Assembly: GCA_963737065.1 (NCBI GenBank)
Contig: CAVTRC010000001.1
Coordinates: forward strand, 448,001 to 512,000
Reading direction: 5' to 3'
Length of the DNA: 64,000 nucleotides
Origin: Candidatus Eremiobacteria bacterium
GTDB lineage: Bacteria; Vulcanimicrobiota; Vulcanimicrobiia; Vulcanimicrobiales; Vulcanimicrobiaceae
Notes under the pieces: generated by a model
Database searches by the model: none
Told to the model about the DNA's origin: nothing
Seen by the model: only the letters and a program-made list of their open reading frames with translations
Position numbers and translations under genes: made by a program
Shown here: positions 46,960-54,600 of the stretch, in pieces
Layout of the letters: each line of letters starts with the position of its first letter
How positions within the stretch are numbered: the first letter of the stretch is position 1

Positions 46960-47253
46960 TCAGACGCCGGCTGGGACATGAGCCGCGTAGCACGTTCGGC
47001 AATATACCGGGCGATCGCCGCGCGGCCGGAAGGGCAGTGTCGTGCTCACGCCGCACTGCGCGCATACCGCCTCGAAGGTTGGGCGTTGTGCCGGCGACGC
47101 AATCTCGCCGTTCTGCGAACGCCGCGCTTGGCGACACTCACGACAACGTTGCGGCTGATTTACGAAGCCTTTCTCTGCGAAAAATTGCTGTTCGCGTGCA
47201 GAGAAAACGAACTGCGTACCACAGTCCTTACAAGTGAGCATCTTGTCTTCCAC
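46960..47253 (-). CDS. Second zinc-ribbon plus CxxC-x17-CxxC domain protein
   Basis: CKDC..FVFSAREQQFFAEKGF.N.PQRCREC; CAQC..LPFRPRGDRPVYCRTC. No Gly-rich linker. Confidence 0.92.
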   Translation of the reverse strand: MEDKMLTCKDCGTQFVFSAREQQFFAEKGFVNQPQRCRECRQARRSQNGEIASPAQRPTFEAVCAQCGVSTTLPFRPRGDRPVYCRTCYAAHVPAGV

Positions 47254-47364
47254 TGAGTAGGAGCCTCCGCGCGAGCACTACTTGGGCTTGCTCAAATGCG
47301 ACTTTGGTAAGAGAACCCCTCCTTCGGAACGGTACGCAGCCAAGCGACGGCGCTCAAAAGCGAA

Positions 47365-47577
47365 CTAGTCGCTGCGCGCGTTTTTCGCATCCTCGGCGGC
47401 TATCGTCGGGTGCGTCTCGTCGTTCGTGTTCCGCGGCTCCGCATCGTTTCGTATAATGACCGGCCGTGGGCCGTTGTCCGACTCGTCGATCGGCGGGTTT
47501 TGATCTTCGTCGCTGTCTAGCGTGCCGCGATCAACGAGCGGGTCGCCGTCGCGAGTGAATTTATTGCGATCAGTCAT
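47365..47577 (-). CDS. Small acidic, probably disordered hypothetical protein
   Basis: 70 aa, Asp/Glu/Pro/Arg-rich; GGTTC-N15-GGGTAC 11 nt before ATG. Confidence 0.65.
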   Translation of the reverse strand: MTDRNKFTRDGDPLVDRGTLDSDEDQNPPIDESDNGPRPVIIRNDAEPRNTNDETHPTIAAEDAKNARSD

Positions 47578-47600
47578 AATGCGGGGTCGTACCCACGCTA

Positions 47601-48116
47601 TTACGATCGGAACCCGGCGCGCGGCGATTCATGCTGGTGCGCGAGCGCAACGAGCGACGCGGCGGCCATGGCCGCGAAATACCCTTTATCGCCTCGCTTG
47701 GGGTCGGCACGCTCAGCTGCCTGTTCCATGTTTTCCGTCGTCAACACGCCGAATCCGATCGGAACGTTGGTGGAAAGTTGCACCGCCATGATTCCGCGAG
47801 CGCATTCGCCCGCGACAAAATCGAAGTGCGGCGTTTCGCCTCGGACGATGGCGCCGAGCGCCACGACGCCGTCCACGTTGTCTTTCGCAATGATGCACTT
47901 CGATGCGAGGGGAAGCTCAAAACAACCCGGCACGTCGTAGACCAGAATGTCGGCGGGCTTTACCCCACACTCGGCGAGCGCATGTTGCGCGCCTTCTACG
48001 AGCAAATCGCTGAGCTCGCGATAGAACCGCGCAGCGATGATTGCAAACCGTTTTCCGGTGCAATCCGGCGCGGGCGAAGCGTTGGTACTTCCGTTCTGTC
48101 CGCTCCGCGGCTTCAC
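47601..48116 (-). CDS. ribH: 6,7-dimethyl-8-ribityllumazine synthase
   Basis: VPGCFELP, LGAIVRGETPHFDFV, FGVLT, ERA..KG motifs. Confidence 0.96.
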   Translation of the reverse strand: MKPRSGQNGSTNASPAPDCTGKRFAIIAARFYRELSDLLVEGAQHALAECGVKPADILVYDVPGCFELPLASKCIIAKDNVDGVVALGAIVRGETPHFDFVAGECARGIMAVQLSTNVPIGFGVLTTENMEQAAERADPKRGDKGYFAAMAAASLVALAHQHESPRAGFRS

Positions 48117-49525
48117 GAAGCGACCGTCTCGTCGAACATGTGGCCGAGTTTGGCGCGCTTTGTCGCCATGTACCGCTTGTTGTGGACGGTCGGCTGCGTT
48201 TGCATCGGCACGCGCCCGACGATCGTCAACCCGTAGCCCTCCAGCCCAAAGATCTTGCGCGGATTGTTCGTGATCAACCGCATCTCTTTGATGCCGATAT
48301 CGGCAAGAATCTGCGAGCCGATACCGTAGTCGCGCTTATCGATCGGAAGTCCAAGCGCGACATTCGCTTCCACGGTGTCGGCGCCGCGATCTTGCAACTC
48401 GTAGGCGCGCAGCTTGTTGGCAAGTCCGATGCCGCGTCCTTCTTGCCGTAGATACAGAAAGACTCCGCGGCCTTCTTTCGCGATCATCGTCATCGCGCCG
48501 TCGCGCTGCGCGGCGCAATCGCAGCGAACCGATTGCAAAGCGTCGCCGGTCAAACACTCGGAGTGCACGCGCACCAACACGTCTTTGCCGTCGCTGATGT
48601 CTCCCATGACGAGCGCGACATGCGTATTGCCGTCGATTGTCGTTTCGTAAGCGACGCCTCTCCAATCGCCCGTCGTCGAAGGCAGCGTGAATTCGGCAAC
48701 TTTTCTTACGAGTTTTTCCGTGCGCATCCGATAGGCGATGAGGTCCTTCACGGTGATCAGCTTAAGGCCGTGGCGATCGGCATACTTGCGTAACCCCTCT
48801 AGACGCTCCATCGTTCCGTCTTCCGCCATGATTTCGCAGATGACGCCGGCCGGGTACAGTCCCGCGAGGCGCGCGAGATCGATCGACGCCTCGGTCTGTC
48901 CTGCCCTCACGAGCACGCCGCCGTCACGCGCGCGCAACGGAAACGTGTGACCGGGGCGCAAGAAATCGGTGGATGTCGCATTTGGATCGATCAGTTTTTT
49001 GATCGTCGCCGCACGATCGTGCGCTGAGATTCCGGTGGTCGTAACGCCGCGAGCTTCTACGGATACGGTAAATGCCGTCTCGTGGACAGCCGTATTTTCA
49101 TTGACCATTTGCGGAATCTGCAGTTGGTCGAGGCGCGTGCCGACCATCGGCACGCAGATGAGGCCCCCGGCCTCCTTGCGCATGAAGTTGATTGCGTCCG
49201 CGCTAACCATCTGTGCCGCCATAACGAGGTCGCCTTCGTTCTCGCGGTCCTCATCGTCGAGCACGACGACCATCTTCCCGGCGCGGACATCATCGACGGC
49301 GTCTTCGATGGAATCGAACTCGCTCTCAGGCTCTTGATCGGCCGACGGCGCGAGTTCGGGCAGCACGTTGGTGAGGCGCCGCAAGGTTCCGTACGACGGT
49401 TCTCTGCGGCCCGAACGCAGAAGCGACACAGCCGATTCCGTCACCCCTGAACGCTGGGCAAGCTCCACTGCGGAAAGACCCGCCGCATCCATCGCAGCGT
49501 TAAGGGCGTCGGCGAACAGACTCAT
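48113..49525 (-). CDS. ribBA: XRE-type HTH fused to bifunctional DHBP synthase / GTP cyclohydrolase II
   Basis: N-terminal ~60 aa HTH (GLSAVELAQRSGVTESAVSLLRSGRREPS), then DDEDRENEGDL, TTGISAHDRA, RVHSECLTGD..RCDC, QEGRGIGL, TNNPRK. ATG at 49525. Confidence 0.95.
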   Translation of the reverse strand: MSLFADALNAAMDAAGLSAVELAQRSGVTESAVSLLRSGRREPSYGTLRRLTNVLPELAPSADQEPESEFDSIEDAVDDVRAGKMVVVLDDEDRENEGDLVMAAQMVSADAINFMRKEAGGLICVPMVGTRLDQLQIPQMVNENTAVHETAFTVSVEARGVTTTGISAHDRAATIKKLIDPNATSTDFLRPGHTFPLRARDGGVLVRAGQTEASIDLARLAGLYPAGVICEIMAEDGTMERLEGLRKYADRHGLKLITVKDLIAYRMRTEKLVRKVAEFTLPSTTGDWRGVAYETTIDGNTHVALVMGDISDGKDVLVRVHSECLTGDALQSVRCDCAAQRDGAMTMIAKEGRGVFLYLRQEGRGIGLANKLRAYELQDRGADTVEANVALGLPIDKRDYGIGSQILADIGIKEMRLITNNPRKIFGLEGYGLTIVGRVPMQTQPTVHNKRYMATKRAKLGHMFDETVAS

Positions 49526-49531
49526 CTCCCC

Positions 49532-49562
49532 ACGGTATGGCGCCGACTTGACAAATGTCAAG
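49532..49562 (-). promoter_or_regulatory. ribBA promoter with a perfect palindromic operator over the -35 box
   Basis: Minus strand TTGACA, 18 nt, TACCGT, 6 nt, ATG. Inverted repeat CTTGACA-aa-TGTCAAG at 49547-49562. Confidence 0.75.
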
Positions 49563-49746
49563 CTAGGCTGCACCGCCTGACTTTGCGTATTACATAGTCC
49601 ATGGGGTTGGTTCGTAGCCGGCCGGTTAGTAGGCAGCGACTTCGCGCGTAAGCGAGCTTGGGCTTTAAACGAACACTTCTTTTGGGTACACTCCGCGTAG
49701 ATTCTGTAATACAATGTAGTACTTACACGGGGGAAGGAGAGCCCCT

Positions 49747-50032
49747 CTGCCTAGGATCACGCGACTGTATTAGGACCAAAACAATGAGGACCCATTTATG
49801 GGAGCGCCGGGTCAGTCCGGAAGACGTAGAGGAAATTCTGTTAGGATGCGACGGCGAGGAACCGACATACCGACAGCGCCGCGACAGCGACTACCTCGTT
49901 ATCTACGGAGAAACCGGAGGCGGAAGGTTACTTAAAATGGTCGGGGAGTTTCTGTCGGATGGGCACTTCAGGGTGTTCAGCGCGATCGACATGGACGACG
50001 ACGAGCGTCGAGCGTATAGAAGGGGGAAATAG
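49747..50032 (+). pseudogene. BrnT-like type II toxin, disrupted by a nonsense codon and a +1 frameshift
   Basis: After AAGGAG: CTG-CCT-AGG-ATC-ACG-CGA-CTG-TAT-TAG-GAC-CAA-AAC-AAT-GAG-GAC-(C)-CAT. Repaired it reads xPRITRLY[W]DQNNEDHLWERRVSPEDVEEI...YGETGGGRLL...RVFSAIDM...ERRAY. Confidence 0.78.
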
Positions 50033-50039
50033 CAGCATC

Positions 50040-50288
50040 ATGGCAGCTGCGGGAAAGAAATCGCATGAACGGATGCTTCGGGAGCTTGAAAGATCGCAAA
50101 GCCACGAGATCGCTAACGCTGAGATCGTAACCGGGGAGCGTGGCGGAAGTGCTCCATTTTCGGTTCGCCTTAGTGCGCCGCTCCTTGAGCGACTTGATCG
50201 TATAGCGCGGCGTGAGAACCGCAAGCGCGGGAATCTAATTCAACACATTTTGTGGGAGTATGTTAGAGCCAGCGAAATGGACGCATAA
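50040..50288 (+). CDS. Ribbon-helix-helix (CopG/BrnA-like) antitoxin
   Basis: FSVRLSAPLLERLDRIARRENRKRGNLIQHILWEYV C-terminal RHH; immediately after the toxin. Confidence 0.82.
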   Translation: MAAAGKKSHERMLRELERSQSHEIANAEIVTGERGGSAPFSVRLSAPLLERLDRIARRENRKRGNLIQHILWEYVRASEMDA

Positions 50289-50600
50289 GCAACTATCTTC
50301 CACACAAAAGAGGACCGATTCACCCGATCCGCTCTCACGCGACGCCCTCGGCTTGGCTCCGCTGCGTGCTATTTTTTTGGATCGTGTTTTTTCTACACCA
50401 ACTGGTGACCTATATGGGACGATGCGCCGAATGTTGCGCGCGAGTCCGGACAGGCATACCGCTTGAGCGAACATGCCGGCATGGCTAGGCACTTACCGGC
50501 CGCGCCGTCTCGTCGACTCTTCGGCATTCCGCCGAACGCCACCGCCATCGCGGTGCGGCTCACGTAATGCCGGGTACCGAAACGCTCGGCACGATGCCAA

Positions 50601-50780
50601 TCACCCAGCCTGAATCGGTGTGATGCAGTGCCCGACGCCGTTCTTATTGCATTTGGGGCAATTCGTCGGGATACTGAACGCGGTTGCTCCTGCCGGCGGC
50701 TCGTTGCGAAGGCTGTCACCGTGCCACAGATGCTTGCACCAGAGGCATATTTTCTTTTCCACGCTCTCAATATTCGGCAC
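50601..50780 (-). CDS. 59-aa CxxC...CPxC small zinc-finger protein, not in the ORF track
   Basis: GTG start: MPNIESVEKKICLWCKHLWHGDSLRNEPPAGATAFSIPTNCPKCNKNGVGHCITPIQAG*; TAAAAT 12 nt upstream. Confidence 0.6.
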   Translation of the reverse strand: MPNIESVEKKICLWCKHLWHGDSLRNEPPAGATAFSIPTNCPKCNKNGVGHCITPIQAG

Positions 50781-50795
50781 GGCGCTTTCGTCATT

Positions 50796-51242
50796 TTACC
50801 TGAGCGTTTGAACGAGCGCTTTGCGCAACTCCTGGGGCAACGGGCGGCTCTTCTTCGTCTCACGATCCATGCACGCGACGGTCAGCGACATTACGGCTGT
50901 CGCATGCTGCGTACGTTCATTGAAAATGACGGTCTTCCAGCGTACGCTCGAACCGCCGACCTTCTCGAGATGCGTGCGCATGCGAAGCCAATCGCCCATC
51001 AGCGCGGGCGCGTGATACTCCGCTTCGGCACGTACGCGCGGCAACCAAAAGTCGAGTTCATCGAAGATCCGCTCATACGGAAATCCGAGTTCGCGGAACA
51101 TTTCCATTTCAGCGTATTCCGCGAACCGCCAGTACGTCGGAAAGTACATGATGCCGGCGATATCGACATCCGCCCATTGCACCGGTAATCGGGCTTCGAA
51201 AACGCGCGCGTTTTCCGGCAGTGTGTCTTTGAATCGCGTCAC
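50796..51242 (-). CDS. Acyl-CoA thioesterase (4HBT/hotdog family)
   Basis: VQWADVDIAGIMYFPTYWRFAEYA motif; GTG overlaps the ribE stop. Confidence 0.88.
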   Translation of the reverse strand: MTRFKDTLPENARVFEARLPVQWADVDIAGIMYFPTYWRFAEYAEMEMFRELGFPYERIFDELDFWLPRVRAEAEYHAPALMGDWLRMRTHLEKVGGSSVRWKTVIFNERTQHATAVMSLTVACMDRETKKSRPLPQELRKALVQTLR

Positions 51243-51853
51243 GCGTTCGCGTCCTTCGACAAGCTCAGGATGACACTTGCGGCGTAGCGCGCCAGCGGGT
51301 CGGCTTCGAGGTTGACCAGCGATCCCGCAACGCGATCCGCGAGAGTCGTGCGCGCCAGTGTTTCGGGAATGAGTGCCAATTCGAACCACCCGTCGCCGGC
51401 GCCCGCAACCGTCAGGCTCACGCCGTCGACTGCGATGAACGCTTTGTCGACGATCATTGGTGCAAGCGACGGCGGGCGCTCGACGCGCAGGCGTTCGCCT
51501 TGACCTTCCGGCGCGCGCGAAAGCACGTGCGCCGTAGCGTCGACGTGACCGTACACGAAGTGGCCACCGATTCGATCGCCGACGCGCAGCGAGTATTCCA
51601 GGTTCACTCGATCGCCTGGCTCCAATGCATCGAAATTGCTCCGTGCGATCGTTTCTGGAACCACGTCGAAACGAAGGCATTCGCCTTCAATCGCCGTGAC
51701 CGTCAAACACACGCCGTTGACTGCGATCGAATCTTTGACTGCCGGCTTCTCGTTTGCGACGCCCTCACATGCGAGGACGAGCGTCATCCCGCCGTTTGCG
51801 AGCCGCTCGCGTGACACGAGCGTTCCGCGGTAACTGATCAGTCCACTAAACAT
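51239..51853 (-). CDS. ribE: Riboflavin synthase (alpha chain)
   Basis: [45 protein letters not shown]. Confidence 0.96.
51251..51275 (-). repeat. REP-like dispersed repeat half embedded in the ribE 3' end
   Basis: TGTCATCCTGAGCTTGTCGAAGGAC (translates as VILSLSKD or CHPELVEG). Degenerate copy at about 5049-5073 on the plus strand. Confidence 0.5.
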
Positions 51854-52937
51854 CGAAAAGCCCGCTTATCACAACGTCACAGCCGATCTGGTCCATGCGG
51901 TCGAACCGCAACCTGCGCCGCAGCGTCGCAAGGTCGGCCCCGGCGAGTACCGGCACCGCAGCCGGTGCCGTCAATAGCACCGGTGCAATTGCCCAATAGA
52001 AGCGGTCGACGATGCGGGCTGCAATCGTCCTCGCAGCGAGCGTCGGTCCGCCTTCGCAGAGGACGCTTTGCACGCCGCGCTCACGCAGCGCGATCACGGC
52101 GTCGCGCAAGTTTAATTGCGACTCGTCGGCACTGCCTACAAACACGACGTCGGCAACTCCGCGCAGATTCGCAAAACGCTCCCGCGCGCCGTTCGGCGCG
52201 AGCACGATCGTCGTTGCATAGCCTTCGATGGGGGCGAATACGCGGCTGTGCTCCGAAACGCTGTCCGTTTCGCAGGCGATGATACGTTTGAACGGCTGCA
52301 GACGATGCGACGGCGGCCGCACGGTCAACTGCGGATCGTCGACACGCACCGTTCCCGCGCCGACCATGATTGCATCGTACGCGATGCGCAGATCGCGAAC
52401 GTAGAGGCGCTCTTCTTCACTCGTGATCCACTCTTGCACGCCGGGTTGCGACGTGATCCGTCCATCGAGCGACATCGCCATCTTTAGTGCGACGAACGGA
52501 CGGTCATGCGTTACCGCGTACGCAAAGGGCTCGATCAACTGGTGCGCTCGCGGCTCGTCGACGAGCTCGATTGCAATGCCGGCCTCGCGCAGCGCGTCGA
52601 TTCCGCCGCCGCTGGTCTTCGGATTCGGATCCCGCGTACCGATCACGACGCGCGCAACACCCGCTTCAATCAATGCGCGCGAACACGCCGGCGTCCGTCC
52701 GATATGGTTGCACGGTTCGAGTGTGACGTACACCGTTGCCCCGCGCGCGTCACCGGCTTGCGTCAGCGCGTTCGCTTCGGCATGCGGGTCGCCCGCGCGG
52801 TGATGATAGCCCTCACCGATGACGCGGCCGTCGCGCACGACGATCGAACCGACCGCCGGATTCGGTGACGTTGACCCAATGCCACGAGCCGCGAGTTCGA
52901 ACGCGCGGTCGAAGAAGAGCTGGTCGAGCGGACTCAC
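51846..52937 (-). CDS. ribD: Bifunctional pyrimidine deaminase/reductase
   Basis: [45 protein letters not shown]. Confidence 0.97.
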
Positions 52938-53536
52938 GCCCTCCCGTTCGCGACGGCGATAACGAATGCTTTTGCAACGCGAGCGCCGGCCGCGCGCAAC
53001 ACGCCGGCACAATCTTCCAACGTCGCGCCGGTCGTGCACACATCGTCGACAAGCGTCACCGCAACATCGTCGACGAGATCGCTCGGGCAAAGGAAGCGTC
53101 CGCGTGCCGAAAGCCGCTCGATTCGGTTGCGGCCGCGTTGCGTCTCGCGCGCGATGCAGGTCAGCACCGACAGCGTTGCGGCACCCGCGCGGATGCCCGC
53201 CACGCTCGAGATGAGCTCGATACCGTCGAAACCGCGAACGCGCCGGCGCGCGGCCGTTGTCGGAACGGGCACGAGCACATCATCCGGCCGAATCATCGCC
53301 GCCATCCGGGACGCGAGCGCCTCAGCCACGTCGCGCCGTCCGTCTTTCAACGCGTGCACGGCCGAACGCAACGGCCCTATGAAGTCGCCGAGCGCTACGA
53401 CATCGAGCGTGGCTAAACGGCGCTCGACGAACGGCGCGCGGAACGGCACGCACGCCTCGCACAATCCGCTGCCTTGTTTCATGCAGCCCGCGCACTGCTC
53501 GGGGAAGAGAACATCGATGAGCCGGTGGTACATCAC
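52934..53536 (-). CDS. ComF-family phosphoribosyltransferase-like protein
   Basis: N-terminal [31 protein letters not shown]. Confidence 0.9.
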
Positions 53537-53571
53537 CCGCTCATTACCGTGAACGCGACGCCGTGGCTAGA

Positions 53572-54600
53572 CTAAATGGTTACTTCTTCATTCGCAACGA
53601 CCGCGCCGCTCAGCGACGCTGATGCTGGAACCTGATACGACTGACCGACGATCGTATCGCGAAGCGTCGCGCGTTCACCGACCCTCGAACCTTGCCAAAT
53701 GATGCTCGCGTCGAGCATGGCGCCCGGTTCGATCCGAACGTCGTCACCGATGACGGACGGCCCGGTGACGCGAACGTTTGCGCCGACGTCAGCCCGCGCA
53801 CCAACCCAGACGTTGTCGCCAATTCGCGCGGAACGGTGAACTTGTGCACTCGGGTCGACTCCATTTGCACGCGTTCCCGGGATACGAAACCGCGCGTTCA
53901 CGACGTCCGCGCTTGCACGCCGATACTCATCGGGCGTTCCGATGTCGCACCAATACGCGCCGCGCGCGTCGTATCCGTAAAACGGCTTCCCGTCCTCGAG
54001 CAGTTCGGGAAAGACTTGTTTCCCAAAGTCGTAGAACTCGTTCGCCGGAATGCGATCGAAAATTTCCGGCGAAAATGCGTAGATTCCCGTGTTAACGAGT
54101 TTGCTGCGCTCCGTCCCCCGTGCAGGCTTCTCTTGGAATCCCGTGATCCGTCCGTCACCGTCGACGACCACGACGCCGTATTGATCGACGTTCGGACGCT
54201 CGACGAGACCGATCGTTGCCACCGCGCGCTTTTCTTCGTGCATCCGCACCAATCGATCGATGGGAAGATCCGTAAGATCATCGCAGCCCACGACGACAAA
54301 ATTGTGGTCTCCGAAAAAGCGCTGCAATGGCTTCACCGCGCCGGCGCTTCCCATCAGTACCTCCTCGTGTAAGTATTCCAGCCGCACGCCGAACGCGGAA
54401 CCGCTGCCGAGTGTCTGCACGATCGCATCTGCCAGATAGTGGACGTTGATTGCGATCTCGTCGTAGCCGTATGATTGCAAATAGCGGATCAAGTGAACGG
54501 CATTCGGAACGCCGGCGACCGGCACGAGCGGCTTCGGCACCGCTTTGGTAAGCGGGTAGAGGCGCGTCGAAAGACCGCCGGCAAGAATCATCGCCTTCAC
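53572..54600 (-). CDS. NDP-sugar pyrophosphorylase (mannose-1-phosphate guanylyltransferase-like)
   Basis: AMILAGGLSTRLYPLT..PKPL, FQEKP, YWCDIGT, C-terminal hexapeptide repeats. Confidence 0.92.
   Translation of the reverse strand: MKAMILAGGLSTRLYPLTKAVPKPLVPVAGVPNAVHLIRYLQSYGYDEIAINVHYLADAIVQTLGSGSAFGVRLEYLHEEVLMGSAGAVKPLQRFFGDHNFVVVGCDDLTDLPIDRLVRMHEEKRAVATIGLVERPNVDQYGVVVVDGDGRITGFQEKPARGTERSKLVNTGIYAFSPEIFDRIPANEFYDFGKQVFPELLEDGKPFYGYDARGAYWCDIGTPDEYRRASADVVNARFRIPGTRANGVDPSAQVHRSARIGDNVWVGARADVGANVRVTGPSVIGDDVRIEPGAMLDASIIWQGSRVGERATLRDTIVGQSYQVPASASLSGAVVANEEVTI

Follow-up and report, generated by a model that had tools for sequence, protein, structure and literature searches.

A 64,000-nt window of a Candidatus Eremiobacteria genome (assembly GCA_963737065.1, contig CAVTRC010000001.1, positions 448,001 to 512,000) carries on its minus strand a gene in which an XRE/Cro-type helix-turn-helix (HTH) domain is fused to RibBA, the protein that unites 3,4-dihydroxy-2-butanone 4-phosphate (DHBP) synthase with GTP cyclohydrolase II. 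We consider it probable that this protein, HTH::RibBA, is a bifunctional trigger enzyme that represses its own promoter through the N-terminal HTH. As expected of a trigger enzyme, one polypeptide unites a domain for DNA binding with what appears to be an active enzyme, and a predicted operator lies at a promoter of the same pathway, namely the gene's own ribBA-ribH promoter. The parts of the protein are listed below in window coordinates, with the supporting evidence in brackets; pLDDT is the predicted local distance difference test score and dN/dS the ratio of nonsynonymous to synonymous substitution rates.

48113..49525, minus strand: whole HTH::RibBA coding sequence, 470 amino acids plus stop codon (open reading frame call and domain scores)
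49523..49525, minus strand: ATG start codon, probable 5′ end of a leaderless mRNA (homologues begin at the same residue)
49352..49525, minus strand: XRE/Cro-type HTH domain, residues 1-58 (HTH_3, 31.5 bits; AlphaFold2; dN/dS 0.12)
49310..49351, minus strand: acidic flexible linker, residues 59-72 (pLDDT below 50 at residues 61-67; dN/dS 0.55; alignment gapped and variable)
48731..49306, minus strand: DHBP synthase (RibB) domain, residues 74-265 (PF00926, 288.2 bits)
48206..48703, minus strand: GTP cyclohydrolase II (RibA) domain, residues 275-440 (PF00925, 233.5 bits)

The original prediction described an HTH fused in frame to an intact RibB-RibA, and profile searches of the 470-residue open reading frame bear this out. 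HTH_3 (PF01381) is matched at residues 10-55 with its score standing against a curated cut-off of 23 bits, and HTH_31 is matched with 30.5 bits against a cut-off of 27. Both enzyme domains are full length, with profile positions 1-191 of 191 covered for PF00926 and 2-165 of 165 for PF00925. In an AlphaFold2 model (built on 45 sequences, mean pLDDT 72, and used for domain layout alone), residues 1-60 have pLDDT values of 75-91 as means over 10-residue blocks and form helices at 3-15, 19-26, 30-38 and 45-54, such that residues 1-58 show both the profile match and the four-helix layout that define an XRE/Cro HTH. Residues 69-463 align end to end with residues 3-404 of Mycobacterium tuberculosis RibBA (RibA2; PDB 4I14) at an E value of 3e-138, which makes residues 1-68 an extension at the N terminus of an otherwise normal RibBA. 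The enzyme bodies of the two proteins are alike, whereas 4I14 begins where the linker ends and has no HTH. Residues 1-110, searched against the ESM Atlas, matched nothing but generic clusters of DHBP synthases and of HTH proteins, which did not inform the architecture.

HTH::RibBA is the only match to PF00926, and the only match to PF00925, in this 95%-complete genome. Within the motif HSECLTGDALxSxRCDC, cysteines C324, C335 and C337 are invariant in 45 of 45 sequences, and these we take to correspond to the zinc ligands of Escherichia coli RibA. Because the gene is the sole source of both activities and the cysteine triad is invariant, the protein should be a working enzyme as well as the carrier of a DNA-binding domain. 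In a codon analysis of 21 orthologues the median dN/dS ratio was 0.12 in the HTH and 0.55 in the linker, and the two enzyme domains gave 0.07 and 0.05; these values are rough, with dS near 1. This pattern indicates that the HTH is translated and held under purifying selection, with the linker behaving as a tether.

The start codon assigned here probably differs from that of the deposited annotation. The open frame extends 63 codons further upstream to a TTG at 49714 (49526-49714, minus strand), which would give a protein of 533 amino acids, and a 533-residue member is on record in the same 90% cluster. We favor ATG 49525 because 20 related proteins begin at the equivalent residue, because an in-frame stop codon lies 1-15 codons upstream of the equivalent ATG in 25 of the 27 loci listed (the exceptions being the window's own genome, at 75 codons, and locus L011, at 49), and because the conserved promoter-like elements fall within the longer frame. 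The deposited record thus probably starts the gene 63 codons early and hides the promoter inside the coding sequence; beyond this correction, database entries name these proteins only as RibBA. The linker of the window sequence contains no ATG, GTG or TTG in frame, and RibBA should accordingly never be made without its HTH.

Immediately upstream of the ATG lie the elements of a candidate operator-promoter, the position weight matrix (PWM) in the first line being described below.

49547..49562, no strand assigned: 16-bp perfect palindrome CTTGACA-nn-TGTCAAG (CTTGACAtttGTCAAG), the proposed operator (sequence; conservation; PWM)
49556..49561, minus strand: −35 hexamer TTGACA, coinciding with the left half of the operator (site positions 2-6 kept in 85-87 of 87 loci, position 7 in 81)
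49532..49537, minus strand: −10-like hexamer TACCGT (TAnnnT), 18 nt past the −35 and 6 nt (GGGGAG) ahead of the ATG

Read on the minus strand, the palindrome is CTTGACATTTGTCAAG at 49562..49547, with two perfect 7-nt arms around a 2-nt center, and it spans the −35 hexamer together with the first half of the spacer. The arrangement TTGACA-N18-TACCGT-6nt-ATG, with an inverted repeat over the −35 at 49547-49562, had been described in the original prediction, and all of these sequence statements hold. Its conservation was assessed with upstream DNA from 92 fusion loci, of which the 87 that are distinct and include at least 77 nt of upstream sequence were used for site counts. The pattern CTTGACAnnTGTnAAG is matched at all 13 of its specified positions in 54 of these loci and at 12 in another 20, so that 74 loci retain at least 12; weaker matches of 11, 10 and 9 positions occur in 7, 5 and 1 loci, respectively. 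The end of the site is located 18-23 nt ahead of the start codon in 83 of the 87, and the average information per position is 1.51 bits within the site versus 0.12 in the 40 nt upstream. Although the sequence of a promoter spacer is normally unconstrained, the right half of the palindrome is conserved as strongly as the left, its positions being retained in the 87 loci as T80 G87 T83 n A87 A87 G72.

In 73 of the 87 loci a TAnnnT hexamer follows the −35 after a spacer of 16-19 nt (17-18 nt in 65 of these 73) and sits 5-9 nt ahead of the start codon, the distance being exactly 6 nt in 47 of the 73. Start codons across the 87 loci are ATG in 54 and GTG in 33. A second site matching at least 10 of the 13 positions is present in 10 of the 87 loci, compared with 0.5 expected by shuffling; eight of the ten are located 26-29 bp upstream of the first, and they occur mostly in lineages whose primary sites are weak. 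A check by eye for co-variation between half-sites, and between recognition helix and site, gave nothing usable, as variation was scant and dependent on phylogeny.

Within the genome the site is unique, and it is not a mere chance match. Across all 3.08 Mb the pattern CTTGACANNTGTMAAG occurs once with zero or one mismatch, and at two mismatches it has 7 matches versus 18 for a reversed control pattern. Scored with a PWM derived from the other 86 sites, the window's site reaches 28.9 bits and the next best sequence in the genome reaches 16.0. Five further near-complete fusion genomes, one in 7 contigs and the other four single-contig, likewise contain no site within one mismatch other than that ahead of ribBA. 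The ribD-ribE genes lack such a site, and ribBA-ribH alone carry it. Comparative genomics therefore predicts an operator-type site on the gene's own ribBA-ribH promoter.

Several other sequence elements were noted near the operator. The motif TT(T)ATGGGCAAAGCC, a candidate dispersed repeat or set of sites for a second regulator, occurs in many genera, in one to three direct or inverted copies 30-100 nt upstream of the ribBA operator, at L011, L020, L022, L028, L031, L033, L054, L056, L057, L076, L077, L086 and L089; elsewhere on the chromosome of the window's genome there are 7 copies of CTACGGGCAAAGCC with a 94-bp period (G000:C1:1068450-1069014). Several genera (L015, L019, L026, L028, L029, L031, L062, L066, L074, L083, L086 and L089) share a conserved (G)GTATATCA(T/C)C that adjoins the operator immediately 5′ of the −35 and is absent from the window's locus; it may represent a −10, either upstream or divergent, or else an UP-like element. 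At L016, L052, L061, L070, L090 and L104, a long and nearly perfect palindrome, CATACTTGAAACGGTCGTTTCAAGTATG, is located 40-70 nt upstream of the operator, and one similar copy is present on another contig of the window's genome (G000:C2:158193-158218).

If the palindrome is the target of the fused HTH, the two should share a distribution. We searched a sample of 401 genomes from the phylum with the 72-residue HTH part of the protein as query, in tallies that take in a dozen unpublished genomes; the nearest named records belong to a Candidatus Cybelea metagenome-assembled genome (MAG) and a Vulcanimicrobiota (Eremiobacterota) MAG. The outcome by group was as follows, the matches in the first two groups usually lying in open frames of about 470 amino acids.

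Window's family: HTH part matched in 278 of 296 genomes
Second family of the same order: HTH part matched in 5 of 5 genomes
Next family of the same class: RibBA starts MPLxxIEEAI, without the HTH, in 5 of 5 genes
Remainder of the 401-genome phylum sample: weak HTH matches alone, with E values of 1e-4 to 1e-6, in frames of 82-298 amino acids (five genomes checked)

Because both families of the order have the HTH, whereas RibBA of the next family begins without it, the comparison indicates that the fusion is derived and characterizes the order, not the phylum as a whole. Within its range the HTH is conserved over more than 70 genera. Five candidate fusions from outside the order (L112-L116) were rejected as weak matches in 82-298-residue frames, and two further candidates, from records of Dehalococcoidia and Terriglobia (L004 and L005), were rejected as stand-alone XRE proteins. 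The searches also brought up tandem HTH_3 proteins of 388-1235 amino acids with 5-11 repeats (P0030, P0031 and P0036) and, in genomes of the family, frames of 837-850 amino acids with weak matches to the HTH query (L102, L103 and L109-L111).

The 18 genomes of the family without an HTH match provide a natural control. Ten of them were looked at: in three RibBA is represented by C-terminal pieces at contig ends and in four it was not found, so that seven of the ten are assembly gaps rather than real losses and are uninformative either way. The other three encode an intact RibBA without the HTH. These proteins begin at the position of the linker, and none of the three genes has the site upstream. 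In one of them (G077; L049, G077:C17), the segment about 40 nt ahead of RibBA retains TTGACA-17-TAGCCT-6-ATG, and the right half of the site reads CCGTTTGCT; here the HTH codons seem to have been cleanly deleted, with decay of the right half-site. This promoter geometry without the right half implies that the promoter does not need that half-site and that the HTH does. As read from the family tables, a site with at most one mismatch is present in 250 of 278 HTH-positive versus 4 of 18 HTH-negative genomes, and in genomes where no such site is found, weaker versions occupy the same place. By this comparison the site and the HTH are shown to be lost together.

FMN (flavin mononucleotide) riboswitches are the usual means by which bacteria control ribB and rib operons. 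A search of the 64-kb window with Rfam returned no family at the gathering score, and none at E ≤ 1 in 47000-54000; therefore an FMN riboswitch is absent ahead of both ribBA and ribD, as had been proposed, and the RF00050 leader that marks riboswitch-controlled rib operons is missing here. RF00050 was likewise found in none of 151 genomes sampled over the phylum, by the same search that was positive in 7 of 14 control genomes. As families without the fusion also have no riboswitch, the fusion is not a one-for-one replacement of a riboswitch within the phylum. The distance from the −10 to the start codon seen here is the geometry of leaderless mRNAs, as in actinobacterial leaderless genes, and from it we infer that the ribBA transcript is leaderless, with its 5′ end at the start codon or within about 3 nt of it. 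Such a geometry can accommodate neither a riboswitch nor a Shine-Dalgarno sequence.

These observations can be assembled into a model of autorepression. RibB and RibBA structures have been solved as dimers, and by analogy the enzyme body of HTH::RibBA would dimerize as well, with the flexible linker of about 14 residues allowing the two HTH heads to reach the two half-sites of CTTGACA-nn-TGTCAAG. Protein bound over the −35 and the early spacer of the single ribBA-ribH promoter would exclude RNA polymerase. A leaderless transcript requires that control act at initiation and not through leader RNA. The regulated unit would be ribBA-ribH only, and the resulting negative feedback would set the level of the first enzyme of both riboflavin branches, plus that of RibH. 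DNA binding by the HTH, the repressive sign of its action, the dimer geometry and the leaderless start are all predicted features of this model. Since the next family of the class keeps ribE and ribBA adjacent (RibBA is directly behind ribE in three of the five cases), a plausible origin is that an XRE gene was captured between these two genes along with the leaderless promoter by which it regulated itself.

The autorepression originally proposed is supported as far as sequence goes, and none of the computable tests that could have refuted it did so. Translation starting downstream of the HTH would have been fatal to it, and is contradicted by the low dN/dS of the HTH and the linker's lack of a start codon; a fusion unique to this assembly is contradicted by its presence in 278 of 296 genomes of one family and 5 of 5 of another; and loss of the palindrome from orthologues is contradicted by its retention, in the same place, in most of the 87 loci. 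Several points nevertheless weigh against it. The support consists of sequence comparison, in which related genomes are non-independent and counts overstate the number of evolutionary events, and a single site per genome leaves no regulon as a cross-check. As the left half of the palindrome coincides with a consensus −35, the evidence for an operator rests on the right half. The −10 is conserved as TAnnnT only, and 14 of the 87 loci have no TAnnnT at the usual spacing, these having weaker sites and partly different layouts. A sigma-70 consensus scan called no promoter in 47400-53700, and it misses this one because TACCGT matches TATAAT at only three of six positions; the promoter is accordingly proposed from conservation and not from the scan. 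Matches between the HTH and solved repressors are weak in sequence (best E value 0.0014). Finally, with an HTH on every enzyme molecule and one operator per chromosome, affinity would need to be tuned low.

The alternative that fares best, a tentative one that we regard as possible, refines the autorepression model rather than excluding it: the DNA affinity of the repressor would be set by a ligand, whether GTP, ribulose-5-phosphate, an intermediate or a flavin, bound by the catalytic domains, so that the protein would sense how much precursor is supplied or how much product has accumulated. Such gating would make sense of the fusion partner being the committed enzyme of both branches, and another form of flavin feedback would be useful in a phylum whose sampled genomes have no FMN riboswitch. 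BirA, NadR, PutA and RbkR offer precedents (PMC5397151), and a second, independent HTH::RibB lineage, described below, points the same way. On the other hand, the sequence data are silent on ligand control; the linker, being short, variable and by prediction disordered, offers no obvious allosteric path; and plain concentration-dependent autorepression accounts for all of the observations.

We think it quite unlikely that a different regulator, or a promoter element as such, explains the site, with the fused HTH having some other role (nucleoid tethering or protein contacts) or being a relic. Binding of the site by the fused HTH is a prediction, and several other XRE-type proteins are encoded in these genomes, as seen from extra weak matches to the query. 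Yet gain and loss of the site go hand in hand with those of the HTH, the one site per genome lies exactly at the gene that carries the HTH, and purifying selection on the HTH over so many genera means that it is not a relic. Least probable of all is that the HTH acts as an activator or promoter-remodeling factor, by a MerR-like mechanism or by class II-like recruitment of RNA polymerase: the site does cover the −35 and spacer, where some activators sit, and the −10 is weak by E. coli standards such that a helper could be useful, but MerR-type promoters have an over-long spacer, whereas the −35 here is a perfect TTGACA with a spacer that is optimal (17-18 nt) in most loci, and an HTH-less relative, in which the layout of −35, −10 and start codon survives although the right half-site does not, suggests that the promoter works without the protein.

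Self-repression by an HTH-bearing riboflavin enzyme may not be confined to this order. A full-library search with residues 1-110 identified a more distant fusion on metagenome contigs, with a 425-residue architecture resembling HTH_3::DHBP_synthase::GTP_cyclohydro2, for which three upstream regions were seen.

L125:1-444: second-lineage locus
L126:2300-3778: second-lineage locus
L127:2300-3778: second-lineage locus

The domains score 30 bits for HTH_3, 283 bits for DHBP synthase and 103 bits for the cyclohydrolase-like domain, which is without the cysteine triad, and the HTH is a different one (GITQGRVSQLV). Upstream is a different palindrome, TATTAGC-N3-GCTAATA, which is perfect in L126 and L127; L125 keeps TATTAG-N5-CTAATA alone. 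In all three loci it overlaps the −10 of a leaderless-looking promoter, which reads TTGCAC-17-TAATAG-6/7-ATG in L126; L125 and L127 have variants of it, those of L125 being TTGCGG (−35) and TAATAT (−10). No other rib gene adjoins this one, whose neighbors encode a dipeptidase on one side and an isocitrate dehydrogenase on the other. A search with the second-lineage HTH retrieved 265 proteins at E ≤ 0.001, and among the matches listed, 116 of 120 have precomputed HTH_3, DHBP-synthase and cyclohydrolase-II Pfam domains; some of the sources are named Aestuariivirga sp. or Pseudomonadota bacterium, and the proteins are annotated only as RibB or RibBA.

The same design thus seems to have arisen twice. 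A broader proposal, which is speculative and which we hold to be rather doubtful, is that a portable, self-regulating cassette of XRE HTH and leaderless operator-promoter was captured at least two times independently by the first riboflavin enzyme, once in the Eremiobacterota/Vulcanimicrobiota order and once in Aestuariivirga-like Alphaproteobacteria, neither the HTH nor the palindrome being the same in the two, and that occupancy by substrate or flavin gates DNA binding. If this is true, HTH::RibB(A) would be a protein-based sensor of flavin or its precursors, equivalent in function, within bacteria, to archaeal RbkR and to the FMN riboswitch.

Among known regulators, HTH::RibBA most resembles RbkR in its presumed working, yet it is a member of no such family of trigger enzymes. 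RbkR consists of a winged HTH fused to a CTP-dependent riboflavin kinase, and its DNA binding is altered by CTP, riboflavin and FMN; the same source lists BirA, NadR and PutA as bacterial enzyme-regulator fusions (PMC5397151). With RbkR our protein shares an N-terminal DNA-binding domain on a riboflavin-pathway enzyme, and a predicted or demonstrated control of rib genes in lineages without FMN riboswitches. In contrast, HTH::RibBA is bacterial, its HTH is of the XRE/Cro type and not winged, and its partner is the first enzyme of the pathway and not the kinase, its domains being HTH_3, PF00926 and PF00925, where the RbkR family has a winged HTH and the archaeal kinase. RbkR moreover governs a multi-gene regulon as opposed to a single self-operator, there is no sequence relationship between the two, and HTH::RibBA is known from sequence alone.

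The likeness to BirA, NadR and PutA lies in a DNA-binding domain carried by an active enzyme of the same pathway, with pathway genes repressed, by prediction in our case, from palindromic operators at their promoters; these proteins differ in their enzymes, DNA-binding folds and cofactors, and their effectors are established. Autoregulated XRE/Cro-CI repressors such as the 434 repressor, SinR and HigA-type antitoxins have the same HTH_3 domain, a short palindromic operator on their own promoter, and autorepression. They dimerize through small dedicated domains or partners, whereas the proposed dimerizing body of HTH::RibBA is a biosynthetic enzyme of 400 residues. With the FMN riboswitch (RFN element, RF00050), the shared features are the target, ribB or ribBA-ribH, and a presumed riboflavin feedback; the riboswitch, however, is RNA-based and resides in a long leader, which the ribBA transcript is predicted to lack.

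We found no description of an HTH-RibBA fusion in the literature searched, which did not extend to subscription journals. That literature attributes control of riboflavin synthesis in bacteria to FMN riboswitches and to RibR in Bacillus, with archaeal RbkR as the sole enzyme-fused regulator, and a 2026 review names, in the passages that matched our search, only the riboswitch and RibR for bacteria (PMC13028884). HTH::RibBA would accordingly offer a testable, protein-based bacterial alternative that comprises one protein, one 16-bp site and one promoter, conserved over more than 70 genera in a soil phylum that has received little study and appears to have no FMN riboswitch at all, and RibBA would join the short list of trigger enzymes. 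The HTH, operator and leaderless promoter would also provide a minimal, self-contained autoregulatory part.

The surrounding genes are arranged on the minus strand in the order comF-like gene, ribD, ribE and 4HBT-type thioesterase gene, followed by a pair of small open reading frames on the plus strand and then by HTH::RibBA and ribH.

47601..48116, minus strand: ribH, lumazine synthase (PF00885, 164.6 bits; GTG start codon overlapping the ribBA stop codon as GTGA)

Because of this overlap, ribH is probably co-transcribed and translationally coupled with ribBA. The small plus-strand frames overlap one another between the thioesterase gene and ribBA (window 49658-50288) in a layout like that of a toxin-antitoxin pair. 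One encodes 124 amino acids and has no Pfam match, and the other encodes 109 amino acids with a borderline match to RHH_1 (20.9 bits, cut-off 20.5).

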